Assembly: GCF_006345805.1 (NCBI RefSeq)
Contig: NW_021836128.1
Location: forward strand, 124,001-188,000
Direction of reading: 5' to 3'
Source of the DNA: Octopus sinensis
Taxonomy: Eukaryota
Length of the DNA: 64,000 nt
In this document: one piece after another, positions 17,773 through 64,000 of the stretch
Layout: every line of letters starts with the position of its first letter
Position numbering within the stretch: position 1 is the stretch's first letter
Notes under the pieces: generated by a model
What the model was told of the DNA's origin: nothing
Database searches by the model: none
Seen by the model: only the letters and a program-made list of their open reading frames with translations
Made by a program: the position numbers and the translations under genes

Positions 17773-18242
17773 AATGTCCGGAGTCGAACAATAGCTTCAG
17801 CATAGAGAGCATATTAGGAACTAATTCGGATATTTCCTCTGTGTACTCTTCCGACACTGAGCCATCTAATCCGCTCATTTTGGCTCCTTTTGAACACAAA
17901 ACAGTCAATCAAGGAACTCAGGGAGAAAATATGAGAGTTCGAAAATTCGTATGTCATTACGAAAACTGTGGAAAGGCCTATTTCAAAAATTCTCACTTAA
18001 AAACTCATTATCGGAAGCACACAGGTGAGGAATCCAAAATAACAACTTTAGGGGAGAAACCATACAAATGCAATTTTGAAAATTGTAGCAAATGTTTCTC
18101 GCGGTCAGATGAACTGGGGAGACACCGCCGCATACATACGGGAGAGAGGAACTACACGTGTCCTTACTGTCAGCTGAAATACATTCGTTCTGACCATTTA
18201 TCCAAACACGTCCAAAACAAACACAAAAAACAGAAAAGTTAA
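17773..18242 (+). CDS. Kruppel-like factor (3 C2H2 fingers, KLF9/10/11/13-like); start uncertain
   Basis: CHYENCGKAYFKNSHLKTHYRKHTG^EKPYKC...FSRSDELGRHRRIHTGERNYTCPYC...RSDHLSKH; 27-nt intron 18025-18051. Confidence 0.92.
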
Positions 18243-38635: not shown

Positions 38636-38855
38636 AAGTTTTTCGTAAAGATTGAATTTATTTTCGGTATTCCTCTTTTCCTAAACTTTTTTATTATTCA
38701 AAAATAATTTTTTCAATAGATAACCGAAGGAGGGAAGACGACCTAAGAAAAGAAGTTTTTCGTAAAGATAGAATTTATTTTCGGTATGCCTCTTATCCTA
38801 AACTTTTTTATTATTCAAAAATAATTTTTTTAATAGATAACCGAAGGAGGAAAAA
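38636..38855. repeat. Tandem duplication of ~118 bp
   Basis: AAGTTTTTCGTAAAGAT...TAGATAACCGAAGGAGG present twice. Confidence 0.9.
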
Positions 38856-38904
38856 CGAAGCTGAAGAAAAAACGGTCAGCTTAATAAGGTAATTAATCAA
38901 ATCT

Positions 38905-39180
38905 TTTTTGTGTGTCGCTTTCTTGCCTGTCGCTTTTTTGTGTGTCGCTTTCTTGCCTGTTGCTTTTTTATGTGTCGCTTTCTTGCCTGTCGCTTTCTTG
39001 CCTGTCGCTTTCTTGCCTGCCGCATCTCTGCCTGCCGCATCTCTGCCTGCCGCATCTCTGCCTGCCGCATCTCTGCCTGCCGCATCTCTGCCTGCCGCAT
39101 CTCTGCCTGCCGCATCTCTGCCTGCCGCATTTCCGCCTGCCGCATCTCTGCCTGCCGCATTTCCGCATTTCCCCCCATCT
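38905..39180. repeat. 15-bp tandem repeats (TGTCGCTTTCTTGCC grading into TGCCGCATCTCTGCC)
   Basis: About 17 units directly visible, ending in CCCCCCATCTCACC. Confidence 0.95.
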
Positions 39181-39184
39181 CACC

Positions 39185-41692: not shown

Positions 41693-44600
41693 ATGGTGGG
41701 TAGTCAGAATATGGAGAGTTTCACCGAAGATATCGTGGATGCCAAAACAAACGAACAAACTGAGCTTGGGGGGAGTGTAAGTAATGTAGGTGCGGGCATA
41801 GGTAATATAGGTGTAGGAAATGCAGGAAATGTGGGCGCAGGAAGTGTAGGTAGTGTAGGTGCATGCGTAGGTAATCTAGGTGCAGGAAATGTAGGTAGTG
41901 TAGGCTTATGTAATGTCAGAGAAAATAAGATTACTCATCAGTTGTCAGAAGATCATCAATCGATCCGTTTCGATGAAAATAACTTCAGTAAAGAGGTATT
42001 AATATTAGATTTATTTTTAGTGTATGGAAACGGATTACCTATTGAGAAACAAAGAATATTTGGAAAATACACAGGTTTTAGATAATTTATGTAGCACGAA
42101 ACGTAAAAAAGTTAGTGTAGGAAATAATAATTTTAAACGATATAGTTTCGATGATATGAGTGTTAGTCTAGATAATAAATTTAACATTAAAGTAAATAGT
42201 TCAAATGAGACGTTTTCGATCTCAAATTTTAGACGAGAAAAGAATAGATTGCGCATGGCTATGAAAAGGGCAGCCGAGTCACAAGATCAAAAGGAACATC
42301 GACAAGAATGCAACAGATTAAGAGCAACTATAAGAAGGAGGCAAGAGACCGATGATATGAGGAATTTCAGAAAAGAACAAGATAGAATGGGGAAGGCTAT
42401 TACTAGGGAACAAGAGTCACAAGAACAGAGGGAACATAGACAAGAACAAGATAGAATGGGGAAGGCTATTAGTAGGGAACAAGAGTCACAAGAACAGAGG
42501 GAACATAGGCAGGAACAAGATAGAATGGGGAAGGCTATTAGTAGGGAACAAGAGTCACAAGAACAGAGGGAACATAGGCAGGAACAAGATAGAATGGGGA
42601 AGGCTATTAGTAGGGAACAAGAGTCACAAGAACAGAGGGAACATAGACAAGAACAAGATAGAATGGCAACGGCTATTAGTAGGGAACAAGAGACAGAAGA
42701 ACAAAGGGAACATAGGCAAGAGCAAAATAGAATGGGAACTGCTATTAGTAGGGAAAAAGAGACTCAAGAACAGAGGGAACATAGGCAAGAACAAGATAGA
42801 ATGGCAACGGCTATTAGTAGGGAACAAGAGACTCAAGAACAGAGGGAACATAGACAAGAACAAGATAGAATGGCAACGGCTATTAGTAGGGAACAAGAGA
42901 CAGAAGAACAAAGGGAACATAGGCAAGAGCAAAATAGAATGGGAACTGCTATTAGTAGGGAAAAAGAGACTCAAGAACAGAGGGAACATAGGCAAGAACA
43001 AGATAGAATGGCAACGGCTATTAGTAGGGAACAAGAGACTCAAGAACAGAGGGAACATAGGCAAGAACAAGATAGAATGGCAACGGCTATTAGTAGGGAA
43101 CAAGAGTCACAACAACAGAGGGAACATAGACAAGAACAAGATAGAATGGCAACGGCTATTAGTAGGGAACAAGAGACTCAAGAACAGAGGGAACATAGGG
43201 AAGAACAAGATAGAATGGCAACGGCTATTAGTAGGGAACAAGAGTCACAAGAACAAAGGGAACATAGGCAAGAACAAGATAGAATGGCAACGGCTATTAG
43301 TAGGGAAAAGAGACTCACAGACAACAAGGGAACATAGGCAAGAACAAGATAGAATGGCAACGGCTATTAGTAGGGAACAAGAGACTCAAGAACAGAGGGA
43401 ACATAGGGAAGAACAAGATAGAATGGCAACGGCTATTAGTAGGGAACAAGAGTCACAACAACAAAGGGAACATAGACAAGAACAAGATAGAATGGCAACG
43501 GCTATTAGTAGGGAACAAGAGACAAAAGAACAAAGGGAACATAGGCAAGAGCAAGATAGAATGGGAACTGCTATTAGTAGGGAACAAGAGACTCAAGAAC
43601 AGAGGGAACATAGGCAAGAACAAGATAGAATGGCAACGGCTATTAGTAGGGAACAAGAGTCACAACAACAAAGGGAATGCCGACGAGATCGGAACACAAG
43701 AAGAAATTCAGTTAGGAGGAACCAACTAACTCAGGATGAACATCAGACAGAAAATCGACTACGAGTTTCACGCAGGAATAGTAGGGTATCAAATTCTATT
43801 GGTTTAGAAAACACTGGATTTAATTATAATAGGGGCATTGAGTATAGAAATTTAGGTAATGTAGGTGCTTTAACGGAGATATGTACTTTTTGTTTAGCTA
43901 TGAAATTTAAGGGGGAAACTATCGGAATGTGCTGCAGTCGCGGAAAGGTACGTTTACCAGTTTTAGACCCGCCTCCTGAGCCTCTTTTAACACTGTTGAG
44001 GAATGATACACCATCATCTAGGCACTTCGTTGATAATATTCGCAGGTACAATAATGTTTTTCAGATGACATCTTTTGGTACAAGTGGAAATTTCAATCCG
44101 ACGGGCTATATGCCCACATTTAAGGTACTTGGGCAAGTGTATCACAGGATGGGTTCACTCCTTCCAAGTGAAGGCGAGGATTTTAAATTTTTACAAATTT
44201 ACTTTATAGATAATCACGAAGAACAATCTAACCGAAGATGTCTAGCAGATTCAAGACTACGAGGCAACATTATTAGTTCGTTGCAAAATATGTTGCAAAT
44301 GTGCAACACGTATATTTCATCTTTTAGATCTGTTCTGAGATCCACAGCAGATGAAGATTGTAAGGTAATTATACATGCAGATAGGACACCTGCAAATGAA
44401 CATAACCGTCGATACAACGCACCAACGTCAAACCAGGTTGGAATTCTAATAGTAGGTCAACACTATGACTCGAGAGACATAATAATAAACAAGAGATCCA
44501 CTGGATTAATGAGAATTTCAGAGACACATCGGTCATATGATGCACTTCAGTACCCATTATTATTTCCGAGAGGAGAGGATGGGTACAATTTTAAGGTAAT

Positions 44601-47600
44601 GCATTTTAATCCGTCGACTGGTTTAACTACTACTAAAAAAACCAGTTGTATGGAATTTTATTCTTATAGGTTGATGATAAGAGAGCAGGAATTCAACATT
44701 CTACATCGTACAGGCCAGTTATTTAATCAGTTTATTGTAGATATGTATGCGAAAATAGAGGCAGAGAGACTTCTCTACATTCGGTTGAATCAGCGGAAAC
44801 TGAGAGCAGAAGAGTATATACATCTAAGAGATGCCATAATGAATGACGGTAATGTGTCTAATGTAGGTCAAATGGTTATTTTGCCTTCGTCATTCACGGG
44901 AGGACCAAGATATATGCATGAGCGAACTCAAGATGCTATGACATACGTTAGAAATTACGGAACTCCGGATCTGTTTATCACTTTTACGTGTAATCCGAAA
45001 TGGCCAGAAATTAGTGATAACATATTTGTAGGACAAAAGGTCGAGTATAGACAAGACATCATAGCACGTGTTTTTAAACAAAAAGTCGATAAGATGATTG
45101 ATCTTCTATGCAAGGGACAGATTTTTGGGAAGACAAGATGCCACATGTATACAGTAGAGTGGCAAAAAAGAGGTTTACCACATATACATATATTAGTATG
45201 GTTAGTAACTAAAATTAGGCCTACAGAGATAGACGATTGCATACGGGCAGAATTGCCAAATCCAAATGAAGATAGAGAATTATACGAGATCATCAAAAGA
45301 AATATGATACATGGTCCGTGTGGCATATATAACAGAACATCACCGTGTATGCAAGATGGTAAGTGTTCTAAAGGGTACCCAAAAAACTTAATAATTAACA
45401 CGCAAACAGGTGAAAATGGATTTCCATTTTACCAGAGAAGGGGAGCAGCTGAAGGAGGATATACTGCAACCCTCCACGAAGGAAAAGAAAATGAAATAAC
45501 AGTTGATAACAGATGGATAGTGCCTTATAATCCACTATTAAGTAAGATTTTTGATGCACATATCAATGTGGAATTTTGTAATTCAATTAGATCAATTAAA
45601 TATGTATGTAAGTACATTAATAAAGGGTCGGATCAGGCAATCTTTTCAATAGAGCAACGTGATGAGCCAACTTTTTATCAACATGGACGCTATATCTGCA
45701 GTAATGAAGGAGCATGGAGAATTTTTGGATATCCGATTCATGAAAGATATCCATTGGTTATGCATTTAGGGGTTCACCTGGAAAATGGGCAAAGAATTTA
45801 TTTCACAGAGCAGAATGCACGCAATCAAGTTACAAATGCAAGAAATTCAACTCTGATGGCATTCTTCGAATTATGTCGTACAGATCAATTTGCAAAGACT
45901 ATATATTATGTTGATGTTCCTAGATATTATACATGGGATGTCGCGGGGAAGAGATTTAAGAGAAGGATAAGAGGAAATCCAGTAAATGGACATTCAGGAA
46001 TTGTAAGTGCAGATGCATTGGGTAGAGTATATACAGTGCATCCAAATAATTTTGAATGTTATTGTGTTAGGTTACTTTTGCACACCGTACGAGGGCCAGA
46101 ATCTTTCACTGATCTACGGACTGTAGATGGAGTACTCTGCGAAACATACAGAGAAGCCTGTTTTAAATTAGGTCTTTTAGAGGATGATAATCACTGGAAT
46201 CAGACTTTAACAGAAGCTGAACTTGCAGATTCCCCATCGCGACTAAGGTATTTATTTACTTTGATGCTAGCCCATTGTGGGTTAGCAAATCCACAACAAC
46301 TGTGGGAAGGTCACCGAGAAAGCATGTGTGAAGATATATTAAGAGAGAAGAATAGATTGAGTTTCGATGCAGAGATTTTCAACATTGGATTAATCATGAT
46401 AGATAGATTGCTAATATCTATCGTTGGTAAGAGTGTAGGTGAATTTGGTTTTATAATCAGCGATATTCATAATATTAATTCATTTGATGAGCATTATAAT
46501 TTAGAAGAACTTCGAACAATAGTGGAAGAAAGAGAACAAAGCTTAACCACTGGCCAGTTGGAGGTATACAGAGAAATTAATCGAGTCATCCAAGAAGAAA
46601 ACGGTTCTATCATTTTTATTGATGCACCGGGTGGAACAGGTAAGACCTATCTTCTAAATCTATTATTAGCTAAGGTCAGAAGCGAAAATAAACTAGCTTT
46701 AGCAGTTGCATCTTCTGGAATTGCTGCAACTCTTTTAGATGGCGGTCGAACCGCACATTCGACATTCAACATTCCGTTGAATCTCTCATATACTACTGAA
46801 CCGGTTTGTAATGTAAAAAAAAATTCAACTACGGGTAATAGAATTATGCATTCTAGGTTAATTGTTTGGGATGAATGTACGATGGCTCATAAAGGCGCAT
46901 TCGAAGCAGTTGATCGAACATATAGAGATATCAAGAATTGTAGCGACCATTTATTTGGGGGAGCAATAGTTGTATTGGCAGGTGATTTTAGACAGACGCT
47001 GCCAATTATTCAAAGAGGGACGCCTGCGGATGAATTGAATGCCTGCCTCAAATCGTCATATTTGTGGACACACGTGAAAAAGGTAAGCTTAGATGTAAAT
47101 GTACGTGCACATTTACAAGGCGTTAATAGCATATTCCCACAAATCCTTCTAGATATTGGAAATGGGGCAATCACTTCAGAAATGCAAGACCAGAAAATTA
47201 GGCTACCGGAAGAATTATGTATTTTCGTAGAAACAGCAGAAGAATTATTGAATGCCGTCTATTCCGAACTATCTGAACACTACGTGAATTTCGACTGGCT
47301 GCGTGAACGAGCTATATTAGCTCCACTTAATGATGAGGTACTTAATATAAATTTAGATTTATTAATGAAAATCCCTGGCAGAGAAAGAATATATAAATCG
47401 GTCGACGTTATTATGGACCATGAAAGGGCCTGCGAATATCCTGTAGAATTTTTAAATTCCTTAGATCCATCTGGAATGCCGAATCATCTATTGAAATTAA
47501 AAATAGGTGTACCGGTTGTGTTACTCCGCAATCTAGCGCCACCTAAATTATGCAATGGTACAAGGTTGGTTATCAAGAATTTGATGGCTAACGTAATAGA

Positions 47601-47906
47601 AGCGACAATATTAACAGGTAATTACAGAGGTGAGGATGTTTATATCCCACGAATACCTCTGATTTCGGAAGAATTACCTTTTAGATTTAAGAGACTACAA
47701 TTTCCGCTGAAGATAAGTTTTGCTATGACAATAAACAAGGCCCAGGGACAGTCTTTAAAGGTAGTAGGCTTATTTTTAGAGAACGAGTGCTTTTCACATG
47801 GCCAGCTGTATGTGGGGTGCTCAAGGGTAGGTAGAAGAGAAATTTATTTATATTTGCCAAGGATGGACGGACTGCAAACATCGTTTATCCACAGGCCTTA
47901 GAATAA
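41693..47906 (+). CDS. Helitron Rep/Helicase (~2060 aa reconstructed): Gly-rich exon, STPR-like repeats, Zn motif, HUH Rep, PIF1 helicase
   Basis: DLFITFTCNPKW, VEWQKRGLPHIH, IKYVCKYINKG; APGGTGKT, IVWDE, GDFRQTLP, FAMTINKAQGQS, HGQLYVGCSRV; 25-nt intron 41996-42020; frameshifts at ~43310-43330 and ~47840. Confidence 0.95.
42276..43726 (+). repeat. Coding 69-bp (23-aa) tandem repeat, ~21 copies
   Basis: Unit ETQEQREHRQEQDRMATAISREQ. Confidence 0.97.
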
Positions 47907-48251
47907 GGTTATATCAAAGCAGGTCGCATTTATATATCTACATAAATTTATAGTTATTTAAGGAAACTGCGAGCGTAGCGAGCAGGGCCTCCGCAGGAGC
48001 TAGCTCGCAGTGAGCGAAGCGAACTGCTGAGCTAGTATTTAATAATATGTCGCGAGCGCAGCGCCGACCCGAGCGTAGACGCGACTTGACAGCTAAAAGC
48101 CTATCATCAACAATATATTTATTAAATTATTTAAAATTTTAACATGATTTAAAATTAAAATTGAAATACACTTAAGTTTTCCATTGAATCCATAAAATAA
48201 TTTATAGTAGACCTTAATAGAAAAGTTAAAATCAATGAATACTGAACGCTA

Positions 48252-50133
48252 CAGTGCGACCTCGAATTGGGGAAAACCAAGTAGCGGGGAAACCCTCTTT
48301 TTTGGGGAAGGAAACCTTGCTTTTGGGGAAATATTTTTGCCATCCCTATAAAATACGATGATTTTTAATGAAATAAACCCCCTACCGGGGAAAAATTTTA
48401 TATTATCATAAACGATTAATTAATATATTTGTATAATTTTTGATTTATTATTATTTATTTATTGTAACCTGTTTTTCCAAATTTGTAATCAATAATTTTA
48501 AAATTTATTTAACCTGGTAACTTAGTTAGTTAGCTAATTAACCTGATAAAAATTGAAATTATCAATTTTTAAAGTTATTTTATAAATTTTAGAAAGCCAA
48601 TGCCTAGAAAACTAAATCAAAGTGAAAAGATCAGAATTTGCAAGGATATACAGTCGGGTCATAAGGACAAAATGATTTGTGAAAGATTTAACATCTCTAA
48701 AGGAATGCTATACCGACTAAAAAAGAAAAGGGAAGGAATCTTAGCTCAAGGTTTCTCAACATCCGAAGGGACAATTGGATACGATTTGAATGCCCAAGTT
48801 TACGAGATTTTTCGTAATCTCAGGTCGAAAGGTTTCCCAATTAATGGGCCAACCTTAAAGCTTATTGCACGTAAAATTGCGTATAGAAATTCAAATCATG
48901 ATTTCACTGCTTCTAATGGATGGCTTTACAGATTTAAGAAACAATTCGAAATAAAATTCAGAATATTACATGGCGAATCACGATCAGCTGATAAAGAAGG
49001 TGCGGAAAACTTCCGATCAACTTTCAATGATTTGCTTGAAAACTATGGGGGAGAAAACATTTTCAACTGTGATGAAACTGCATTATTTTATAAAGCTGTT
49101 TCCAAAAAGAGTTTTGTTGAAAAAAATGAGTCACACAGCGGACATAAAATAAGAAAAGAACGTATGACACTTCTTTTGTGTTGCAGTTTCACAGAGAAAA
49201 ATATAAACCGCTTATAATTGGGCGTACGAAGTCACCAAGAGTATTAAAAGGTGTGAATCTGAGAGAAATTGGCATTGAATATGATGCTTCGTGCAAAGCC
49301 TGGATGACAAAAAATATTTTTGAAAATTGGTTATCTCGATTTAACGAGGAAATGAGAGAGAAAAGAAGGAAAATAGCATTGTTAATTGATAATGCAACTT
49401 GTCATGCTGTTTCTCTCAAACTTTCAAACGTCGACGTAATATTTTTTCCAAAAAATACAAGTTCCTTAATTCAGCCATGTGACCAAGGGATAATAAAGGC
49501 ATTTAAGAATCATTTTAATAACTGGATTATGAAAACAATTATCTATGATAAAAATCCTGCAGGGCAAATAGATGAAGCAATAAAGGGAATTACAATATTG
49601 GATGCTATTTCATGTTCGAAATTGGCATGGGACGAGATTACAGACACTTCAATACAACATTGCTTTGAAAAAGCTTTGGAATATGACTGTCGGGGAAAAA
49701 GAGGACATCGAAAGAAAGTCTGATTAATTCCGATATTGTGGAAAATGCGATTTTGGAGAGTTTCTGGGATGATAACAGTAGTGATGAAGAGGACTGCAGC
49801 GAACAATTTATGGAACATTTGGATGATCAACAAGTTATAAACAATACGGAATGCGCATTCACAATGCTGCTAAATGTTATTAAGCAAGAGACTCCGGAAA
49901 ATGTACTTGATCTATTCAGATTCAAAGCAAATATTATGAGTTCGATGCGAAAAAAACAAAATACTCGATTAAAATTAACTGATTTTTTATTAAAAAATAA
50001 AAATTGTAGTTACCCGTCTCGGTTATATTATTAAGAGAGATATCGAACAGGCGAGACCTAAATTTAATGAAAAACCTTTTTTTGGGGAAAACCTCAAAAT
50101 TGGGGAAAAATTTCCCAATTCGAGGTCGCACTG
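48252..50133 (+). mobile_element. Complete pogo/Tigger transposon, 1882 bp
   Basis: Perfect 20-bp TIR CAGTGCGACCTCGAATTGGG (48252-48271 / 50114-50133); TA on both flanks; subterminal GGGGAAA repeats. Confidence 0.97.
48600..50034 (+). CDS. pogo/Tigger transposase (CENP-B-type HTH + DD30D), two frameshifts
   Basis: GFPINGP, FTASNGWLYRFK, CDETALF, IDNATCH, QPCDQGII with 30 residues between the 2nd and 3rd Asp; frame breaks near 49195 and 49700. Confidence 0.92.
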
Positions 50134-50409
50134 TAACTTGGTTTGGTACATTGACGTTTTTTTTGGTACACCAAAAAAATTTGAGAATCACTCCTATAAA
50201 ATTTAGTAATGTCGGTGAAAATAAAATTAAAAGATTTCAATCGTTAATTGTTATTGGATAAAATTTATATTCATAGTTTGGTGAATACTATCAAAATAAA
50301 ATTTATGATTATTTTTCAATAAATAATAATTTCGCATCAATTAGTAGCAATTAAATTATCTCTAATCGATGAACATTTTGAGAGATTTTATTAGAAAAAA
50401 GCACGTTAT

Positions 50410-50560
50410 ATTAAGTCCCAGCGGCAAGGACGCAGTGTGCGTTGCCCCGAACAATGGCCAGGCCGATGCGCTGCCGGAACCAGAGGCCCTCTTTCGTGTC
50501 CTTGAGCCTCCTCCCGATGGACTGCCCGACCTCGTTGAGGAATTTCATGGGCCCGCTTTT
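50410..50560 (-). mobile_element. CRE-like 3' fragment
   Basis: Minus strand LNEVGQSIGRRLKDTKEGLWFRQRIGLAIVRGNAHCVLAAGT*. Confidence 0.85.
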
Positions 50561-50749
50561 ATCATCAAAAAATAGGAGGAAAATCAAAAAGACTTAATAG
50601 TGCATTCCGTGTTTAATTTTTCCTGTTTTTACCTTAGTCTCGATGTTAAAAAAATTAAAAAAATTAAAAAAATCATCAATTATCATTTTCATTATTTTGT
50701 GACAGGTTGTATTTTATATGCTGCCCGATAACGTCAATTGAATCTAATC

Positions 50750-51501
50750 AATGCCTAAAATGTGCATCAACTTTCAATCCTGTTGTTGGACTGAATTATG
50801 AGATTTGCCTTGGATTCGGTCTATCAATTTAACAAACACTCTAACAGGGGCGCAGAACCGATCAAAGTTGGGTTGACAAACCGCTCATAGACCTTTAAAT
50901 TCCATCAATGTCCCTCCCACGTGACTGCATATCTCTCCGAACTGTCGAAATTATATACGAACATTAACTTCTACGAATAAGCCTAGTTTCTGCATCACAT
51001 TTGAGGAATAATTTAAGATCGCACATTTCACTGATTGTTTTGTTATGAAATGTCAGGATTCCTTCGATGATGATCACCCTCGACGGCGGGATTCCTTGAC
51101 TTTGTCCTTGACTCTAACACAGTCGAATTCTAGCACCAACCTACTGTGTGTCTTGTAGTCGTACACTGGGATTTCGACGGGCTTAAACTGCATCACATCA
51201 TTTAGTTTCTCGATGGCCAAATCCATGTCAAATGCTTCTATTTGTAAGTGGGACAAAGTGACCTGGATTGTCAAAGTCGTAGTCACCGTTGTACGCTGCG
51301 GTTAATTCCTCGGGGTTGAGTTCCTTGTAGAAGCTGTCGAGAGTGAATATTTGGATGTCGTTCAAGTTATATTGAGAAACAATTTTTTCTGTTAATAAGT
51401 TGCAGAAGTATGTCTGTTGGTTGGAAATATGTTAACTGTACTTTTCCAGAGGCACTACCTCCTGCCACACCGATTATGAATGGCCGCAAAACAGTCCTCA
51501 T
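50750..51501 (-). CDS. UCK: Uridine-cytidine kinase, multi-exon; 3' end approximate
   Basis: PFIIGVAGGSASGK^T, LDSFYK, YDFDNP^EAFD, IPVYDYKTHSR, VIIIEGIL, RRDMQSRGRD; introns 51414-51441 and 51238-51262. Confidence 0.9.
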
Positions 51502-51588
51502 GTTGCTGTATTTAACAAATGAGTTAATTCTTTTATTTCTATTTTAGGTTAGCCAATAAATAATTAAAAATTAATTAAACCATTATCA

Positions 51589-52420
51589 ATGACAGGTACT
51601 GTAAATTTGTAATCAATTTACAGACTTTATCTTAAATCTAGTGATCCCAAGTTAGTCATATCCCTCGATAATGAAACCGAAATGGAGCTTGTGGCGAATT
51701 CATTACATGAGTTTTCACACGGAGGAGTAAATAAAATTGAACATGAATGTCGACAAAGATATTTCACTGTCAAGAATGACATTATCAGAAAAGTCATTCG
51801 AAATTGTGAAGTTTGCAAATTTTCGCGTCCTTTAAAAGTTTAAGATTTTTTTTAATTGTAGATTGGAGATATAAATCACCATGTGTTTGCTTCTTGTCTA
51901 ATGAACGTTTTCAAATAGACATAATAGATCTGAAAAGATTTTCAACACTAAACGAAAATTTCAAATGGATTTTAACGGTCATTGACATTTATAGTAGGTT
52001 GGTTTCTTGAAATTTTTTTTATAGATTTGCATTTGCACGACCACTTTATAATAAGTCTGGTAAAGAAGTGTGTCAAAACTTGAGATCTTTGTTTCGCCTA
52101 AATGGACCATGCAAATTTCTTCAATCAGACAATGGGTCTGAATTCAAAAAACAAGAAATAACACAACTACGCGTTGATTTAACATCAAACAAATCCACAG
52201 AAGGCCCAATAATCCTCGGGTCAAGGAATTGTCGAAAGATTCAATCAAACGATAACCAGGAAGTGTCAAAAATGACGGACAACAGTGAAAAAAAGTGGTT
52301 GATAATTGGAAAATGCTGTGTACAGTTATAACATATCTGTCCATTCATTTTCTAACGAATTCCTTTCGAAAGATATCGAGGAATAAAGGGAATAAATTCA
52401 ATAATCCATGGTTATACATA
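51589..52420 (+). mobile_element. Ginger-type integrase, third and more divergent family, intron-containing
   Basis: LHEFSHGG...IRNCEVC (HHCC), ERFQIDIID, LTVIDIYSR^FAFARPL, LQSDNGSEF. Confidence 0.8.
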
Positions 52421-52489
52421 AATTTCTAATTATTAATTTATTTAAAACACAAAAAAGAAAATTAAAAATTAAAAATTAATTGATATTTC

Positions 52490-54241
52490 TCTCTTCTCTT
52501 AGGGGAACTACTCCGTTGACCGGTCATGTCTTGACACCTCTCCTCTTCGTATTGCAGTAAAGAAAGCAGACTCCTCTGGCAAGTCAACTGACACTCCCAG
52601 TTCTTCTCCTCTAGCGATAAGACTATCCGTTTCCTCTCAATTGGTAGTTGTCGACCTTCATGCCATGTTTGTATTCAACGACCATGCTCTCCAGGGTTTT
52701 CTTGATTGTCACTGATTGAATGTACGCCTTAGTGGGACCTCTATATTCAACTTTTTCATGTAGGACTTATAGAACTTGGCACTACCCCATCCCATGTCAA
52801 TACGACAGGGACTATCGTGACTTTTGCCTTGTGAATCTGTGCCAATTCTCCAGCAAGTAGATATACTTGTGGAGTTTCTCTACTTCGACTTGCTCTTAAC
52901 CTTCCTGGGATGTGACCCGACTTCGATTATCGTTATCTCATTTTCATTTTATCAAGGCACGAAAATGTCTGGCTTGTTGTTTTTAACTTCAATGTCGGTC
53001 CTGCAACGTCATGTCTACTCGATTTCAACACGACTATTTCCACGACCGACTGGACTGAGTGTTGCTTTCAATTCCTTGCATTTCTTTATCCGTACTGACG
53101 ACAGACGTGTAGATGTATGCATCTGACAATTTCATTGTGTCTTCGCATGTATGACCCGTGAAGCATTCTGCTACATCGAGTAGCTAGGTGATCCACGGTT
53201 TTTTGCCGAGCCGCAAGGGTTACAATTAGGCTTTGCCTCTCCGAAAAACAAAATTGCGATCCTGGGCCAAGCATATAGTGCCTCGGCCTTGGGCCATTGT
53301 TCCATTGGCTAGCCATACATTGGACTCCACGATATCAGCACTCGGTTCCTGAATGCATTTAAACAGCGTTGAATGTATCATCTTCGATTAATGGTGTTGG
53401 CCTCAACTCACTCGGTTCAATGTCGATCAATCCGATATAGTAGTTGTAGAGAGAGAGTGCATATTCGTTTATCGCTTTAAAGAGGTTTACTGCACTTAAC
53501 TTTGTTTTTGCAAGACTCTCGATTCTCTCTTTCACGTTTCGAGCAATTGTTTTCATTACCTCGATTTCTTGACATCACTTCCTCTATCCTCCAAGACTCC
53601 CAGGTATCGATACCCAGCACACCCATTCAGACATTTTGTATCTTTCACATAGTCCAGTTAGTCGCAGACTTTTCCGAGTTCCTCTTGAGGCCAACGGCAT
53701 CAAAATTTCATCGACATCTTCCATCATTTTAGAACGGTGTCTTCTTTCTCAGCGCAATTATTTTCAGGTCGTCAATAAACACAAATGGTTTGTTGAATAT
53801 GAAACCGTGAACGGTCATTTTGACCTATACGCACCTTCGGGAACTTCATATTCAAGCTCCTACTTAACGGATCCATTACCAGAGTGAGAGTTTGTGGAGA
53901 GAGTGAGTCTCCTTGTAAGATTCCTCTTTCCATTTTACAGTTCCAATTCTCTTTTGTTAAGTGTCAAAATGACATTCCAATTTTTGATTAAAGTTTTCAC
54001 AAAAATTTGTGATCCAATTCGGAATTCCAGACTGATCAAGCACTTGACATAAGAATTCATGATTGACAGAATCAAATGCCTTTCTGACATCGATCCACGT
54101 TGCAAATAAGTTATTTCCATACTCACTATTGACACACTGGTTTATTAGTGCTTGTTCCTTTGCGCCTTGGCATTGCCCTTCTAGCTCCCAGCTGATTATC
54201 CGAGATAATGTTAAACGCTTCGATATAGTCTGGTTATACAT
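52490..54241 (-). mobile_element. R4/Dong-like non-LTR retrotransposon (RT + CCHC + REL), decayed
   Basis: QGAKEQALIN, WIDVRKAFDSVNH, GILQGDSLSP, YLGVLE, DHLATRC...RRHNEI, NKPDIF. Confidence 0.85.
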
Positions 54242-54869
54242 ATCTTATGTCTTAGATAATTTAAGTGATGAGTGTGGTGACTATGGAAGAAATGGATGAT
54301 TTGGTTAATTGTTCGATTCCAGAATCTATTGAAAATTTTCGTAATTTGATTTAAAATATATATTTAGATTATTCCCAGTCAGACAATTTGTTGCCAACTG
54401 CGAAGAGAGGTGTTATTTTTGTCAGAAGAGATTCATCATTTTATTTCTTTGATATAAGAAGCCCCTTATTCATATTCATTGTAAATTCATACAAATAGAG
54501 ACGAAAATTAATAAATCGAAAGTTTTTTTGTCACAACACCAAAATATGACTTCAGGAACTTTTTTTATAAAAATTCATGAATAGTAATTTGATTTCGTTT
54601 GGTATTCCGTTTTGGTGCTGTACTTGTCCCGATACTTCTCTAGGAGCGAGGTCACTATGTATTCAGCACAAATGCCCCAAAACTCCTTACCCTCACCTCC
54701 TTTTCGTCTCACGTCTGATGTCGGCTTACTAAAAAAATTAAATATTTTTTAAATAATATTTTATCAGCACTATCAAATAATTGTAACTATTGCTTAAATT
54801 GATGAATTTTGCGAGATTACAGACTAAATTACTAGTGAACCGATTAAAGAAAAAACAGAGAACGATCAG

Positions 54870-55040
54870 ATCCCGGTCAAAAATAGCTTGCGCGTTTCCG
54901 CGCATGATTGTAACAGAGATCCTCTGTCTTAGCCGAGAAGATTCGCTTGCATTCATGTTTCTCCGCGCGATAAGGAGGCAGACGTGTTTTAAGAACTTGA
55001 TGTTTGCGGGACGAAGGCTGGGGAGGTCTCGAATGCAAAA
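54870..55040 (-). mobile_element. CRE-like 3' fragment
   Basis: FLKHVCLLIARRNMNASESSRLRQRISVTIMRGNAQAI, closest to the 12893-13227 copy. Confidence 0.85.
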
Positions 55041-55738
55041 GGGACAATTACTAGTTGGATTTGGATTGTTAAAATAGTTATTTAAAGAACAAATGAATAA
55101 AACAATTATTTTTAAAGTGTTATTTTGTATTCGTGTGCTTAGTAACTGCCTTTGCACCTTCTGTAAAAGCATAAATTCACATAATTATTATTATCAATTT
55201 AAATTATTTTAACTATGAGTCATTGAATATTATTGTTAACATTGAATACTCATTATTTCCATATCCTTATTAACATAATGTTCATTTTTACATTTTTTAT
55301 TAACTATTGAAATTTAAAAGCATGCCATTATTAGTTGAAATTGAATAAAATTATTGTTAGAACAAATTAAATAGCATTCTTTGACCCACAAATGGCTCTG
55401 TAAATTTGCTGAATTATAACAGCCATTAATTAAGCAAAAAATTTAAACCCACTTCGTAGTTGTCAAGATGCCAAAAACTACAATAATGGAATGATTGGCC
55501 AACATCGATAGCAATTCGAAATTCCTAGCCACTGAAATAGTCATTAATTGCTGATCAATTCTAAATTCCTTGATAGAAAACATATCGGAGTGAATGATTC
55601 AGGTATTCAAAATATAATTTACGCATTGAATTATTTTGTTTTATTTAATTACGAAATTGGCGCCATTTAGCATTTTTATTTTTATCGTTTAAATATAAAT
55701 ACTTTATCACGGTAAAAGCCATTAAAATAATCTTTGGA

Positions 55739-57470
55739 ATGTTATCTCATCCTCACCTACAGTTTGAATATAAATTAGTAAAAAAGAACAAAATCCACAA
55801 AGTAAGACAAGACCAACTCGGGATATCTTCTAACCCATCAAAGGTATTTATTTCAGCATTAAATGGTAAAATCAAAATCAGAATTTTTCAATATGCTAAA
55901 TGACATTTACAAAACTTCCCTTATCGATTAAGGAATCCTCTAAAGATTCAATATGCTAAATCTATTGGGGAAGGCAGACAAACTCTACAAATGGAATGTG
56001 TAATGGAGGAGGAAGATTAGAGACAGCCGACTTGAATATTGGGCAGTTCAGTGGGATTAGATGAATATAATTTAGAAAGATATGAAGTAAAATGTGATTA
56101 ATTTATCAGATGTTAAAATCAATGACTTGTCATTATATTGTGAGTGATTATCTGGGGAGGGGTACGTGGGCAAGTAGTAGTAGCCTGGCAATATGAAACT
56201 AATCGTCGAGTTGCAATCAAAGTTTTGAAGAAAAATCCGATTCATAAACGTCAAGGAATATCGAGGTTCGTCATAAATAATATTATAGATATCCTTGCTT
56301 AAATGTATCAACAATGCTGTGTCGGATTCGAGGCAAGACCACATAATTCTATTCTCGACCATTTTGAACACGCAGGCCACGTTTTTATTGTGTTTGAACT
56401 GCTTTCAATCAATTTGTATGATTTCATGAGAAATAATACATTTTTCTCCAATTCCTATTTACGGCATGCGGGCAATACCTTTCAAGTAAGTAATTCAATA
56501 TCTGACAAATCAAGGTTCTTAAGGCATTAATAAGCTTTCATACCTCGGGATTATCCACACTGATTTAAAGCCGGAGAATATCATGCTGGTTAACCACCAA
56601 GAATATCCATTCCACATTAAAGTTATTGACTTTGGCTCTGCGGTATATTGTAATCGAATAAGCGACTCCTTTTACTTACAATCGGATATTACCGGTCATT
56701 CTGAGTGATTATGATGTAGGGCACCCGAGGTTATTTGGGTTGTGAGTATGGATGTCCCATCGATGTGTGGTCTCTCGGCTGTATTATGGCAGAATTGGTC
56801 ACTGGTTGGTCTATATTCCCCGGAGCCAACCAGTATGAGCAGATTCGTTATATATGTTCTGCATTGGGTATTCCCAACGACGCAGTGCTCATGTCTGGGA
56901 AGAAGGTGCCTCTGTTTTTGAGAAAACGACTTACTGGAAGCTCAAGGTATAAATATGGCTATTTCAATCTTCAGAATGCTTCTAAATTACTGAGGCTACC
57001 GGAAAAACGGTCAAAAATCCGTCGCGATATTCCGTGAAAGATTTGAACAACATTGCCATAAAAGTGGACTTTAATGCTCATATTTAGATTCTAAAATCGT
57101 CCCAAAGTGTTCCAAATTTGGATTCATATCAAATCTATCAGCAGGATGTTAATAATTTCATGTTTTCGCTGAGGAAAATCCTCGCAGTGGACCCGAATGA
57201 GCGAGTAGCTGCTTGTGATGCAGTGAATCTACCATTTTGGAACTTTACTCCCTATTTGCCTCAGGATTCCAATTGGTATTCATATTTGTGAGTGGATAGG
57301 GTGGCCTATAATGTTCGAATAATGTACTCCTCCTATTCCTGGAAATATTTTCATGTCCCTCTACACTTTTATTTACTCCCCACTCAGTCTTCAAAAAGGA
57401 GTGTACCCTTTCCTTTCAGTTTTATTGGTCGTTATTAATCTTATCAGATCGTCAAATGAGCCTCAGTAGA
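55739..57470 (+). CDS. HIPK: Homeodomain-interacting protein kinase (HIPK), multi-exon; bounds approximate
   Basis: YLGRG, VAIKVLK, FELLSINLYDFM, IIHTDLKPENIMLV, KVIDFGSA, APEV, IDVWSLGCIMAEL, PGANQYEQIRYI; introns 56266-56288 and 56695-56719. Confidence 0.9.
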
Positions 57471-57957
57471 TGTTTTCCGGCTGTGAGGTAGTTTGGTGTG
57501 TGTATTGGGTGTAGTGGAGGTGCTAAAAAAATGTATTATCATTCAAATTTTAAAGATTTGAATTTAAAGTTTGGTTTGTTTCTTTCATATTTAAGCGCTT
57601 CATCTTTGCTCCGACACCTTTGATTTTTTGTATTTTTTGAAATTTTCTTAAAAAATGTTTGATGTTGAAATATATTTTTAATGAGGAAATTGTAATTTTT
57701 TGAGTTGGGACCACTATAATGTGATACCCAGATAAAGCACGTTAATTAATTTACTCGGTCGATTAATTTAATAATAATTCGATGCCTATTAACTCGGATT
57801 AATTAGGGAACCCCGATTAACATTTTTATGTAATGATCATAACGTGTTTTATTAATATAATTCACATGATTTATCTCTATGCCAATTCTCTCCCTAAAAC
57901 TCAGTTTCTCCTAACTTGATGATTGTCCTGAGTCAATCTTCTCTCCCTTTTCTCACA

Positions 57958-60741
57958 ATGGAGGACAAATTACTCATTATTGAGTTTCTATGTGAGCATT
58001 GTGAGTATTATGTGGCTCATCGGCTGATTCCTGTTTATACCGAGTGTCGAGAATGTGGAAAGTTTGTTTCTTTTAGAATTTATGGCAGAGCTAACAATCT
58101 GATGAATTGTCACCAATGTTGTGCTGCATTCCACTCCGAATGTGTTTCCAGTTTGCCTGATTCTGGCCAAGTTTGGGTTTGTTCTGCCTACAGGAGTTTT
58201 ATGGTATGAATTGAGTTCTCAGATGTAGATTGTGGGGGTTCATGATTTGGTTTTGAAAGAATCTTTACTGGGGAGGGATAGAAATGAGAGGAAGTACTAC
58301 TATATGGCCAGGAGAGTTGTGATGTAAGCACATTCTTTCATTTGTAGTCGTTCGAATTCCTCGGATGACGTGTATTATTCGACCAAACTACAACTTAAAA
58401 GACTAATTGAGTGTCTAAATGTCGAAATTGAGTGTGAGAGGAGTTTGGTTGATCTTCTGGGCAAAAATTCGGATATTTTTCGTGCTTTCTCCGTAACTGA
58501 GACCCTAACAGACGAGGGTTCAAACATGTCCAAAAAACTTAGTTATATTCAACACGAAAAAGGTATTTTTGTCGAAATTAATATTTCAGCTAATGATGCA
58601 AGCAGATCGGCTATTTCTATAAAAATAAATCCTAAAAATGTATGATATATAATATATATTGTAGATATCTCTCTCGAATATAAAAGGGGATAAAAGTATG
58701 CGGTTATCTTATGATGTCTTAGCCAATGAGCTGCCGGGCGGGAAGGATGTGAACAATCTTCTACTCAGAAAGAGTGACGGCACCAGAGTGAACGTCAAAG
58801 TCCACAAAATTGTACTCCTACGAATGAATGTGCCTCATTCCAGTCCGACAGTGATCAAAGGTAAAGACAAATTAGTTCCTTCACCTCCCCCGTCGAATCC
58901 AGAGAGGAGTGATATTGGAGAGTTGTATGTTCTCGGTATTTAGTCCTGATACTAGTCATATATAGGGAGGGATTATCATGAGTATATAAATAAGTACTCG
59001 GAACTTGGAAATAAGAATTCGCATGTTGACAGAAAGGCACTCTTGTCTGACTTGTTCTCTGTCAACAACGAGCCGAAATGGAATCTTGATTTTTTTAGTA
59101 AACCGAACGAGTTGAATAATTTTTTGTGTGCGAAGTATATTTATCTATCTCAGTCGATCATAGAATGATTCAGTTGGAGAATTATGTTCCTCCTTTCTTC
59201 ATGAGTCGACTGTGGTCGATAAAGAAACAGAAATGGGTTAATAAAATCCACCGTTCTTCGAACTACCAACAGCTAAGAAGATGACTTTCCATTCTGCAAG
59301 CCAACTTTAGGCCAATTGTGTATGTTGATGCTTGGAATGAATTTTTCGGTAAAATCTGACTTTGTTACTGGAATAGGCCTTTTGGAGACAGTTTACTTGT
59401 ACTCGGAAACCCAAGACTGGTGATGAGACTACGTTGATAAATACTCAGAAATTAGTAAATACACCAAAGGATGATGTTGGATTTTGGAGAACTAATTTAG
59501 ATTCGAGTTATGATTGGAGAGGAGTGTAGAAGAGGTGGTGGATGGTGTTGGATTGGTTGTTGTAAACATCTTCGATCACGTCCTTTTCATACAATCGGAT
59601 TGTCGGTACTTTCTCGGAAGGTGGAGGAAATAAAGAACTGATCGAAGAACGGGGGTCTAATCCCAGGTGCGAATATTAGTGATGAAGACTACAATAATGT
59701 AAAGTGTTGTGAAGTCATGATAGCAAATGAAAATTGAGGTGTCTGTCTTGAATGAACTGGAGAGGTCGGATAAAAATTTGCAACGACTGTATTCCCCGAT
59801 TAGTGTGTCGAATGGGATAACAGAACATGGTATATATCCACATTCGTTTATCAATAACTCTATGTATGTATATCTTAATTGACTGTCGTAGTTTGAATGG
59901 TATTCTTGACATTCTTCTCAAAGTATTGGAATCCCTGCGACTCCGTATTGTCCGTCAGTTTGAAATGAATTCTAACGATTCTGTTCGTTCTGATTTTAGC
60001 ACTCCTTCACCACTCAGTTTATATTTGTATAAAATATTCAGTCTCGGTTTTCGATTCAAATTTGAGTTTGTTTACTAATTTGCTTAATTCATATCGAGAA
60101 AGTGAAACTAATAACTACTTTGATGTCGGCAGTGATGGTTTTTATACTCTGGCTAGAAAGGTACATCATTTGTGAGATTGGAAAAATAGATCTCTTCTCT
60201 TTGGTTTTCAGATACTGCAGATTCGTTTTCGTTAAAACTGTCCAATAAGGAGCCACTTTTATATCCATCAGATGACGTGGAGACATTTACGACATTTACT
60301 AATAAACAGAGAATTTTTAATCTGCCTTCAAATTTACATCGAAGGTGATTGTCGTTTTTAGTGTTGGAAGACTTGGTCGTATGCACTTCTGTGGCTGATC
60401 AGAGTATTTTGTGAATCGTTTGATTTTCGTTTTTACGATCTTCAGTTATAATCAAAGAAAGGCCACTTAGCCACTCCCTCCTCTGACATTCAAGACAACG
60501 GAAGGTATGTCCACTAGTATTATTTTAGGGATTTTGGACGTTCCCCGCGACACGGAGAAAACAGGGTGTAATTTAATGGATAACTCGAGTGGACCGACGG
60601 TGTCTGGTTTGTCTATTTTGTGAGCCTGTAGATTCCTCGTCGTCAGAGCCACAAAAGATAAAAGTATTTAAAGGACAGGATGGGGTTATTTACGTTCGAG
60701 GTTTGAAGGCAGGACAGAGGTTGGTGCAGATGGAGGATTCC
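57958..60741 (+). CDS. BPTF: BPTF/NURF301-like (WHIM1-PHD-WHIM2/3 and central conserved blocks); no DDT or C-terminal PHD-bromodomain seen
   Basis: EDKLLIIEFLC, PHD, LGRDRNERKYYY, YYSTKLQLKRLIECL, ENYVPPFFM, FRPIVYVDAWNE, GEECRRGGGWCWI, KGQDGVIYVRGLKAGQRLVQMED. Confidence 0.8.
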
Positions 60742-60771
60742 GTTTGGTTTCTTCCAATTCCACTAATTCAG

Positions 60772-61991
60772 CCCCAGCATATTCTGGAATGTCATCGAGG
60801 GTGTCAATCATTCTTATTATAAAAACAGAGAACTGGAAAAATATTTTTCCAGCCAGTTCGAGGCCCTCCACTCCAAACTCAGCAAAGTGCACTCGCAGAC
60901 CCCGCCACTCCCCCCAAAAAAGTGATAGGGAAACTGGATGCCCAATTTGTGCAGAAAAGACTGGGGGATTTGCATGTATGAGTGATGAGGTGATGCAATT
61001 ATTTCTCCCAGACCTCCACTCCGAAAATGCCTTTATCTTCTTCCACAGCGACAACAACTGGACTGTCCATCGTCTCCTGGCAGACATTGGTTGGCGGGGG
61101 TCCAAGAACTACTTTGTTGTGTCGAAGGTCTCCCACTGCAAGACCAACTACCTGCTGTCCTTCGTACTCCCCCATCGCCACCCAGACCGAGTACTTCCCC
61201 CACAGTCCCCAATCACTGTCGAAGTCGTCCTCACTCAAAAGTTCCAGGTGTGTGCCAATTGTGACCACCAGTGCCAGTTCATCGTCCCCGTCGTGTCCTC
61301 CCACTTTGCAGTGTCGGGAATGTACTCCACACACGTCTTCCTCCCCAACGGGTCAGTCCGGGATTGGCTAGAACAAGATGAACGCCTTCTTCATCCGCAA
61401 AATGAGTGGACCGAACACTCCTCTCCCGTCCTCGGGTATCAACACGTTGGGTCTCCACATCCTCCGTGCCCTCGAGTAATTGCACGCCCACGGACTGTTC
61501 AATGGCAATGTCCACCTCGGAAATGTCTTCTTCATCAACGGCATCTTCAAACTGGCCGAAACAGAAAGTTCCCTTCTGGGTGTCTCGTCTTTTCATCGAC
61601 CTTTGTGCGTGAATCACGGCAGTATTAAGGTTGGTGGGAGTGTCGAGGTAGTCCGCTACCGCATTCGACGTGTATTTGTACGCACACATGCTCTACGAGG
61701 CTGCCATCGGGCGCATTCTCATGGAAACATTCGTCGACGTTGAGTCAGTCTACTTCAAAGACCAGGACTTGGGTAGACATGTCACTCATTTCTAGTGCCC
61801 GTCCTCTCCGCCGTCCTGGGAAAGCAGACACTCAAGTCGGGCATTCCGTTATTCCAAAACTTGTCCAAATTCAAGTAGTGTGCGTTCTCACCCCACAGAT
61901 ACTACCGAAATGTGTCCGACGAGTATGTCTCCAATCCTATCCACGTCCCACCAAAATGCAGGGATTGCTCGAGGCCCACTCGGCCAGTTGA
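60772..61991 (+). CDS. PXK: PXK/Slob-like PX-domain pseudokinase
   Basis: HILECHRG, QFEALHSKL...PPLPPKKVIGKLDAQFVQKR (PX), LADIGWRGSKNYF, LHAHGLFNGNVHLGNV, ESSLLGVSSFHR, DVYLYAHMLYE. Confidence 0.8.
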
Positions 61992-62094
61992 CTGCAAAAA
62001 AAGGTAAGTATACAAACAAGGTGTCCTCACTTCCTCGAGAAGAAAGGAACAAAATATTATCTCGCCATAAAGTCTGTTTTGAGTGGAGAATTGA

Positions 62095-64000
62095 CTAGAA
62101 ACAAATTTCCTCGAAGGAGAGTAACTCGGATGTGAAAAAGGAGTCTCCTGTCTTCCCTGCCCCCCATCCATCAATGGAATTGTCGAGGATACACCAAGAC
62201 CCTTCCTTACCGATATTCGAAGGTTTCAAAAAGATTAATTTGGAATGTTCATATTTTATCATCATGGAAATTAAGTTTTTGCTTGCCTGAGATGGATGTG
62301 CCAGAACACTCGTGTTTTGGAGGATATGATTTGTCAGCAAAGGGGATTAAATAAGGAAATGACTGGAATAGCACACAAGTGTCACTGAGAGATTACTTGT
62401 CGGTTAAAAAGGCCAAACCTAATTTTAAAAAAGAGCCTATCTGTTGTACTACGAACGACTCAGTTTCACCCGATTGAGTCTGAATTGTCGCATTCGTAGG
62501 AATATCGAGCTTATAATGATCAGAGGACAATTGGTGTCCCACGATTAGAAGGGAATATACTGCGCGTGCTGAATTCTCCGTATTTTGCGGCCAAGCCTAT
62601 TAGTTTTTGGCGATGGTCTTAAACATACAATGGATGCCGACATGGAAAACAAGGAAATAAATTAACATATTTTAAAGCAAAATTTGTTTAAATTGATATG
62701 TTTACTAAATTCATTGACCAACCTTGAGTGTTGATGGATGAAATAATTCCTGACATTCTTTTTAATAGTCCCATCGGAGTGTTTAGTGAGCAAATTGCAA
62801 GTATAATATATAATTATCGAGTCCTCCCACCCGAACAGCTCTATTGCCTGGCAGAATATGCTTTTCCCCTCCCTGCCTATTTGGGAGACAAATCTCAACA
62901 TCACTTCCTCCTATTCTTCCTCCTCCAACACACCCCGCAAGGACAGACCAACGTTTTGTCAGTTTTCCCTTCCAGTACTGATTGGGTGTGGAGACTGGCG
63001 GCCATTTCCTCATTGATGGAGGGAAGTATAGCCAAATTCGTCATTGGGGGGAATAATTACGTGGATTATTTGTGACGGGATATTGTAGTTGCATTGAAAT
63101 TGACATTTCAGTTGTCCACACTTTCTCGAATGGCCAGGGAAACCAAATTGAGAGAACAGATGGCCAGCATTTGGAGTAGAGTGATCAATGTGATTACTCG
63201 GTTGATGAATTTAAGTTGTACTGCCACTACTTGGGGTGTGCTTTGGACTGTAAGCATATCTCCTTCCTCTACCACATCGCCCCCATTTCAAATACCCAAA
63301 TCTAACACCTTCTTATTAAACTCTCGAATAAAGTTCATTCTGTCACTGTCATCACTAAGCTCTCTCAAATCTCCAATTCTTATATCAAATTTACTACCTT
63401 CACTTTGTTGGACATGTTCGAGTCTTCTGACAATATTTCAAACACATTTCCCACCAAAATGTATTGATATCTCAACCTGCAGTACTCCTCATCTTTCACA
63501 AACGACTCAAACTCCTAAAAAAATATTTAAAACTAAAATTTGACCATTTTTTGAAATTTTTTTTCGCGCTGCTGGATTTGTGGTCATCTTGGAATGCAAA
63601 AATACTCTTTTCTACACAAATAATAAAATCTCGAACTTTTCGTGGAGTGAAGGACTGTCGAATTACTCTCACGTTATTCTCCCTCCAAGAAACACCGGAA
63701 ATAATACCCGTCGATCTATTGTGGACAAAAAACCCAATTTTTTTTATCAAAATCTTCAAATTGACTCAAATATCTATAAAATGTGAATCGTAGATTACTT
63801 CATATAGGCTTGTTTGATTTGGTGAGTTTCACATTCGTAATCCTTCATTTTCTCCCGAACAAAATGCCACTTTGTATCGCGGGAAACCTTCTTTATTACA
63901 CATTTTATGACCTTCTTATATCCTCCGTAGTTTTTTACCACTCGAAAAAATTCGTAGAAATCAAGTTCTTTTCCACCAAGCATAGGAGTTGTGGTTATCG
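62095..64000 (-). CDS. ARID-domain protein, ARID2/BAF200-like; 5' end at or beyond the window edge
   Basis: PMLGGKELDFYEFFRVVKNYGGYKKV...W...QIKQAYMK (ARID) followed by colinear minus-strand exons of helical character. Confidence 0.7.

Follow-up and report, generated by a model that had tools for sequence, protein, structure and literature searches.

The window is a stretch of 64,000 nucleotides (nt) of the Octopus sinensis assembly GCF_006345805.1 (contig NW_021836128.1, positions 124,001 to 188,000 of the forward strand) in which the middle of a gene for BPTF/NURF301 passes directly into a gene for the PX-domain pseudokinase PXK/Slob. In our contig numbering it is C12599:124001-188000; all C-numbers denote contigs of the same assembly (2.72 Gb), and positions given without a contig are those of the window. 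An earlier note on this DNA had proposed that the two genes form an in-frame fusion, or else that they overlap or were brought together by a deletion or a misjoin. Here we describe the join, the intact genes that correspond to its two halves and the duplicated block in which it lies, and ask what kind of object it is.

The join and its donor genes

The two genes meet at a DNA breakpoint at 60850 on the plus strand, about 100 nt 3' of the site named earlier. The join runs from exon to exon, at approximately codon 1121 of BPTF and codon 47 of PXK, and its sides share a single C (1 nt of microhomology). A sequence search with 60400-61100 returned 14 matches, and both sides are present at five places. 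The match to C1794 stops at 60850, where those to two places on C12470 begin. Beyond the breakpoint C1794 stays BPTF (...RTGKIVF/PNGDL...), with PHD fingers and a bromodomain still to come; on the other side, ahead of the breakpoint, C12470 reads ...HT/EYSILVTRGYGKNVKYSVGKRY/SQFEAL. It is correct, then, that BPTF abuts PXK without intergenic DNA and that the C-terminal PHD-bromodomain part of BPTF is not in the window.

The join also occurs in X1, a separately built set of short-read contigs (8 of the 31 placed X1 contigs were seen as pieces). X1 record 2 spans 60785-60879 with 0 differences, at a depth of 151.5 against 58.4 for the native continuation of BPTF, depths that serve as a rough guide and not as copy numbers; in this set both donors show up as loose ends at 60850. 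Contigs of three studies (X2, X4 and X6) contain PXK from 60850 on, and upstream of that point they follow C12470 and not the window. Spliced sequence is present in X2, X4 and X5, whose contigs leave out a 22-nt GT-AG intron, and in X3, where a gap of 25 nt falls on a modelled intron. Among the X2-X6 contigs listed, none crosses 60850, and X7 gave no contig here; assembled contigs drop rare variants, and we do not use this result as evidence.

The BPTF/NURF301 fragment (57861-60850, plus strand) covers codons ~122-1120 of ~1784 with its introns kept, and is 93-96% identical to C1794:1205114-1208592. It carries frameshifts and stops at 59282, 59639 and 60468. Its 5' end is set by a blunt 2,150-nt deletion (57860-57861, plus strand), found in all five junction copies and in a further copy on C8699, which took the BPTF upstream DNA, the start codon and the DDT domain (the first ~121 codons; in the donor, PF02791, E 1.2e-6). 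A second deletion, of 474 nt (60379-60380, plus strand; 418 coding nt, frameshifting), is private to the window copy; an X2 contig has 411 extra letters at 60380 and carries the missing BPTF exons. What remains gives a PHD match at E 2.4e-4 and a WSD match at E 0.013, both below the curated cut-offs, on DNA 96% identical to the donor. The donor's C-terminal PHD fingers and bromodomain do not follow after 60850.

The donor itself is whole. On C1794 the BPTF model is a continuous frame of ~1,784 codons, free of frameshifts and interrupted by 26 GT-AG introns (22-30 nt each); the DDT domain, four PHD stretches and the bromodomain lie in that one frame, and the top matches in PDB are BPTF (E 3.7e-19). 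All four PHD stretches precede the bromodomain; BPTF of other animals has two, fewer than this tiny-intron copy. We take a motif in the middle, VRGL..GQ.LVQM, to be a hallmark of BPTF; PDB gave no support for this, and a PDB search with the BPTF exon next to the junction gave nothing useful.

The PXK/Slob fragment (60851-62238, plus strand) begins at codon 47 and is a decayed pseudokinase, 89-98% identical to C12470:320125-318384. It lacks codons 1-46, and with them the N-terminal PX strands and the KRY motif, which has a phosphoinositide-binding role. In all copies the intron at 60976-61011 (plus strand) has the acceptor AA instead of AG; after it the window copy alone has lost 106 nt, and with them the end of the PX domain. 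That domain is left incomplete, as two sub-threshold pieces (E 0.016 and 0.015). The kinase-like domain is not continuous: it is broken by several frameshifts and by stops at 61369, 61477 and 61989. Within 61205-61755 (plus strand) all five copies share deletions of 7, 6, 5 and 6 nt (~61205, 61225, 61362 and 61755), of which those of 7 and 5 nt shift the frame. X1 record 8 (61175-61297, no gaps) carries the deletions at ~61205 and ~61225; the spliced contigs retain the 5 nt.

Here too an intact donor exists. The PXK model on C12470 has 499 codons and 11 introns, with a PX domain (E 8.6e-13) followed by Pkinase (E 0.0075). A full HMMER search with it returned 104 relatives; four of the ten clusters looked up were named, all as 'PX domain-containing protein kinase-like protein'. 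C12470:308263-321346 is a 6.5-kb tandem duplication (99.1%) that holds two PXK genes, and the upstream one has lost its intron-3 acceptor, like all the chimeric copies. This common loss suggests that the upstream gene was the donor of the chimera, or was converted by chimeric copies, or was mixed with them in the assembly.

Is such a protein known elsewhere? Word-based searches found no homologue among 288 candidates for the donor PXK exon and none among 53 for the donor BPTF PHD exon, hence no fusion protein in the database, which is weak evidence. A literature search on BPTF, PXK and fusion likewise showed no such fusion among the papers listed, as judged by titles and the openings of abstracts.

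Reading frame across the join

The stop-free frame that first drew attention to the locus is there: it extends over 60577-60822 and reads ...KGQDGVIYVRGLKAGQRLVQMEDSVWFLPIPLIQPQHILECHRGCQSFLL*. Its last part had been taken for the start of PXK, with HILECHRG as the first strand of the PX domain. The same DNA in the intact BPTF of C1794 reads AYSGMSSR in the BPTF frame. The difference is a 7-nt deletion between GGAT repeats (60734-60735, plus strand), present in all five junction copies and in X1 record 1 and absent from the donor, which creates the SVWFLPIPLIQPQHILECHRG reading: donor DNA at this site reads MEDGGFRLVSSNSTNSAPAYSGMSSR, and the loss of 7 nt at 60734/60735 shifts it to MEDSVWFLPIPLIQPQHILECHRG. 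HILECHRG is read because this deletion shifts the BPTF frame. Compared with named PXK, the 81-residue frame gives no match (E 6.0), and the true strand of C12470, EYSILVTRG, aligns (E 3e-10). The true PX strand is missing from the window, and the likeness of HILECHRG to it is a matter of chance.

The proposal of overlapping genes, with PXK starting at ATG 60730, fares no better. That ATG is the Met of BPTF VQMEDGG; the real PXK start is found on C12470, 185 nt upstream of the breakpoint, in a part that the window does not have.

How, then, does the frame enter PXK at all? The 30-nt GT..AG stretch at 60742-60771 (plus strand) is present as described, and also in intact BPTF; it is a frame-neutral candidate intron. 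The entry depends on another intron, of 28 nt (60801-60828, plus strand), which had been missed and which holds the stop that ended the original frame. Intron positions over the junction are projected from the modelled donor gene, not from transcripts. Undamaged halves of BPTF and PXK joined at 60850 would be out of frame. With the 7-nt deletion present and intron 60801-60828 removed, the window copy is in frame and reads ...HRG-ELEKYFS/SQFEALHSKLSKVHSQTPPLPPKK*, so that the claim of an in-frame passage stands to the extent that this copy reaches the PXK residues SQFEALHSKLSK. It is a chance one-in-three state, found in one of the five assembled copies.

The resulting frame has 133 codons from stop to stop. 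The longest Met-initiated version (60507-60925, plus strand) has 121 codons once introns 60607-60631 and 60801-60828 are taken out: the middle of BPTF, 32 frameshifted codons, 24 PX residues and a stop. The stop at 60923 comes after a homopolymer that is one C short, possibly through an assembly error; without it some 18 more codons would follow until the lost acceptor and the 106-nt deletion. Pfam finds no match in the stop-free frame, and after it only the two PX pieces. The other four assembled copies are put out of frame by extra indels near 60772, and the X1 contig over 60772 likewise lacks that base. The window copy alone retains the donor base at 60772; it is also free of two deletions (template positions 705 and 1880) common to the others.

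The duplicated block and its surroundings

The join lies in a block that covers ~50.1-70.6 kb in window numbering and so runs past the window. In order it contains mobile-element pieces, a 441-bp repeat, sequence of C1794 (a kinase gene and BPTF), sequence of C12470 (PXK and the start of the next gene), sequence of C8695, and C12470 again. Five assembled copies of the junction correspond to four paralogues, on ~257 kb, and one haplotig. We treat C10663 as the haplotig because over 50.7 kb it matches copy A (C12599:15524-66385) at 98.96% identity; a further overlap, of 6.3 kb at 99.1%, links C12187 to the start of C12599. The four paralogues are 2.4-2.7% apart and 3.1-3.9% from the donors. All five copies lack the BPTF start, the DDT domain and the PXK intron-3 acceptor, and they share the deletions of 7, 7, 6, 5 and 6 nt. 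To these the window copy adds its own deletions of 474, 106 and 51 nt; it has six in-frame stops and 16 indels.

C8699:80047-83476 is a further copy of the kinase gene and 5'-deleted BPTF. It has the same 2,150-nt deletion, ends at the window equivalent of 58989 and has no join to PXK, which suggests that the deletion predates the join.

The first donor fragment in the block is a copy of C1794:1200039-1202963 (55171-57860, plus strand; 84-88% identity, with indels). It is a decayed protein-kinase gene with Pkinase matches, presumably HIPK/DYRK-like. Adjoining it is the 441-bp high-copy repeat (54732-55172, minus strand), which gave at least 42 matches from 40 of the 135 candidates scored, most with the same end base, and dozens of copies on small contigs; we take it to resemble a short element that arose from a non-LTR retrotransposon tail. 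Downstream of PXK, 62598-63242 (plus strand) matches the start of the gene that follows PXK on C12470. A third donor, C8695 from 186060 downward, is joined through a 7-nt insert and fills 63250-64000, from where the block continues to its end. The gene at 63.3-64 kb had been considered as Vps53; this was dropped, as the donor reads as other genes. Counted in this window alone, three donor contigs occur within 9 kb, and remnants of five kinds of mobile element within the 13 kb upstream.

Mobile-element remains and gene pieces follow one another at 48373-54300: a pogo/Tigger-type DDE transposase, integrase pieces, a reverse-transcriptase piece and a minus-strand fragment of the uridine-kinase family. 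Ahead of them lies a Helitron (42021-48036, plus strand) with a stop-free frame of 1,846 codons (Helitron_like_N, PIF1) and, in a second frame at its 5' end, a 23-residue repeat region. It ends in a hairpin and CTAG, followed by T. Its last 355 bp are 99-100% identical at several other places, from which we infer that the element has probably been active recently. Just 5' of the Helitron frame is an A-rich low-complexity stretch (38800-41100, GC 10-20%) with short tandem repeats. Farther off are a three-finger C2H2 zinc-finger gene (17709-18242, plus strand) and a protein-kinase frame (2183-2812, minus strand).

Nature and origin of the chimera

The locus is a chimeric pseudogene within a mosaic segmental duplication: the DNA chimera is real, dead and of a known kind. 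Everything by which such pseudogenes are recognized is found here, namely parents that are intact elsewhere, introns and flanks that were kept, several copies and disabling lesions. A functional chimeric gene would have an open frame uniting usable parts of both parents; what is found is at most 121-133 codons, without a whole domain, in one of five copies. With intact BPTF and PXK elsewhere in the genome and no joined copy left unbroken, the likeliest explanation is decaying duplicated DNA of an ordinary kind, not a working fusion gene. In full, we hold with high confidence that a 5'-deleted BPTF and a 5'-truncated PXK, joined at 60850 in a ~20-kb patchwork duplication, form a BPTF-PXK chimeric pseudogene that most likely never was, or no longer is, functional, and that exists in four decaying copies; the genome that holds it is probably that of a dicyemid, assembled together with that of the octopus in which it lives. 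Of the options in the earlier note, deletion or misjoin came nearest: fragments of BPTF and PXK were indeed joined at the DNA level, by a rearrangement of germ-line type in duplicated DNA, not by an error of assembly. The functional fusion finds no support. Full loci of both genes lie elsewhere, and spliced contigs carry the native PXK 5' end at 60850; the note itself had named separate transcripts together with a full BPTF locus elsewhere as telling against a fusion.

The presence of a second organism is suggested by introns. The 37 modelled ones are 22-30 nt long, with a median of 25. Among 51 animals, the accessible text of PMC13644364 gives introns mostly below 30 nt for myxobolids and Dicyema only; a median of 27 bp is given for Dicyema sp. 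in the text available of PMC6543705, and 36.7% GC (guanine plus cytosine) with 49% repeats for a dicyemid genome in that of PMC6736024. The GC content of C12599 is 36%. A second PXK gene, at C1:23221648-23226366, has long introns and exons spaced by kilobases, one of them 100% identical to an Octopus-named protein in NCBI. A long-intron Octopus PXK beside a tiny-intron PXK implies that two animal genomes are present in one assembly. Because introns of 22-30 nt occur beside an octopus genome, the tiny-intron DNA is likely to come from a dicyemid, a parasite of cephalopods. Among the relatives returned by searches with the donor PXK and BPTF, there was no named dicyemid sequence.

How might the chimera have arisen? 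The kept introns and flanks imply copying at the DNA level. A region with the kinase gene and BPTF would first have been duplicated, with loss of the BPTF start and DDT domain, the state seen on C8699. A break in a BPTF exon would then have been joined, out of frame, to a break in a PXK exon by end joining or template switching. Short deletions would have piled up, one of which (7 nt) would by chance have brought the two frames into register, and the block would have been re-duplicated in a transposon-rich region, each copy decaying neutrally. The order of these steps is inferred, and the join and the short deletions may have come in either order. Among mechanisms, we favour end joining or template switching as the probable source of the join because it has 1 nt of microhomology and the donors share no repeat near their breakpoints. 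In 60 kb of each donor no such shared repeat was found; the one match, of 63 bp at 83%, is far from both. Ectopic recombination at sequence shared by the donors is thus not borne out for BPTF and PXK, and a later deletion could have erased such a tract. If C1794 and C12470 were adjacent, one large deletion could have been the cause; the ends of C1794, C12470, C8695, C8699, C12599 and C12187 show no overlap of C1794 with C12470, which is not decisive. Microhomology averages 1.21 nt at the 24 deletions of at least 5 nt, against 0.74 +/- 0.21 at random (P 0.025). We do not claim microhomology-mediated joining as a general signature, because one deletion was counted twice, some may be assembly errors, and the joins between donors show 0-1 nt or a 7-nt insert.

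Several results weigh against the pseudogene interpretation or loosen parts of it. The chief one comes from substitutions, scored in codons covered by at least three copies and more than 3 nt from any gap. Those found in all copies comprise 31 synonymous and 32 nonsynonymous changes, a nonsynonymous-to-synonymous ratio (pN/pS) of 0.30 (P 5e-6). This ratio may reflect selection on the donor lineage, the branch not being assignable: polarising by the tandem PXK copy failed, as the pair differs at only 6 of 1573 sites. Comparison with C8699, on few sites, leans to the donor lineage (7 synonymous and 5 nonsynonymous changes are shared with C8699, and 0 and 2 are confined to the junction copies). 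Later substitutions, in a subset of copies, look neutral (43 synonymous, 116 nonsynonymous, pN/pS 0.78, P 0.18 versus neutrality; BPTF 0.96, PXK alone 0.54), and assembly errors from long reads and haplotig differences in this class push the ratio toward 1. Because the window copy keeps the donor base at 60772 and is free of the two deletions that the others share, the array may have been founded by a copy that was in frame at the join; the pattern of shared substitutions, star-like over the four paralogues, leaves this undecided. The BPTF model comes from a scored search in which single intron calls may be off; the PXK model is manual: for four introns a contig shows one gap of the expected length, and the others were placed through joint lengths only. 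The X1 contig that bridges the join extends 65 letters to one side of it and 30 to the other, where the rule asks for 31, and X1 possibly comes from the assembly's own sample. The dicyemid label, founded on introns, host and GC, is a likely one.

Taken at face value, the ratio of 0.30 would suit a young functional fusion or proto-gene, in which the window copy or the array founder makes a short protein of the BPTF middle and half of PX and the other copies are debris. The frame that is open over the join and the amplification of the join to four copies point the same way. That frame exists in one of five copies, and there it depends on a frameshift by which 32 codons lose their homology; it has no native promoter or ATG; its product would contain no BPTF domain, would miss the first 46 codons of PXK and with them the KRY motif, and would end after 24 residues of PX; and the lost acceptor and the PXK deletions of 7 and 5 nt are common to all copies. 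We give this reading very little credence. A wider version is slightly less improbable, though still a long shot: the ~257-kb transposon-rich region would be a hub of gene fragments, or 'tinkering locus', in one of the most reduced animal genomes, gathering pieces of distant genes and re-duplicating the composites, and the window copy would preserve the founder's in-frame BPTF-PX join as a transcribed proto-gene of ~121 residues, briefly under selection.

Capture of gene fragments by the neighbouring rolling-circle transposon, which would have assembled and spread the mosaic, we regard as just as doubtful as a functional fusion. The Helitron does encode Rep and helicase domains (PF14214, E 1.6e-60; PF05970, E 3.3e-63), and near-identical Helitron ends lie between copies of the block. 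Its own hairpin-CTAG end, however, is reached ~7 kb short of the first donor fragment, pieces of other transposons lie in between, and no bracketing is visible; around other copies, the Helitron pieces are separated from the block by more than 10 kb and may point either way; and the block ends are ragged, the right one without a systematic scan for a second terminator. A misjoin of two repeated or low-coverage regions seems more improbable again. Errors are frequent in parts of the assembly (there are dozens of 1-nt indels in C12187), which also holds at least one redundant haplotig, and the short-read bridge is short on one side; yet the identical join occurs in four divergent paralogues with nested private deletions, and X1 has it without a difference at 2.6 times the depth of the native BPTF path. 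Least credible of all is a rearrangement or amplification programmed in somatic cells. For such cells of dicyemids, the accessible part of PMC6543705 cites elimination of chromatin, circular DNAs and selective amplification, but the divergence of the copies from the donors and their nested shared lesions would need inheritance over many generations, and the junctions inspected have no common signal sequence.

As a pseudogene the chimera matters little in itself, being another broken composite in duplicated DNA. The practical lessons are that a probable parasite genome is mixed into a 2.7-Gb assembly and that in-frame 'fusions' in such an assembly call for a search for intact donors first. A gene-poor genome with shrunken introns still generates and retains multi-donor duplications. 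If the hub interpretation were true, dicyemids would offer a compact system for following the birth of chimeric genes.

The pseudogene has its closest likenesses among known systems in the chimeric duplicates and unprocessed pseudogenes of segmental duplications. In Sdic of Drosophila, as the available text of PMC3449122 has it, pieces of two genes were likewise duplicated at the DNA level, fused in exons, altered by later internal deletions and amplified locally; there adjacent genes were joined and the product is treated as a gene, whereas here the donors are on different contigs and all copies are broken. The 'tinkering loci' of Drosophila (bioRxiv 10.64898/2026.08.09.743762, again in its available text) resemble this region in their dense, dispersed fragments from several loci, the flanking non-coding DNA kept with them, their many classes of transposon and a re-duplicated composite. 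Those loci are described with transcription and the birth of proto-genes; ours is known from its DNA, and its BPTF and PXK donors have no repeat in common close to the breakpoint.

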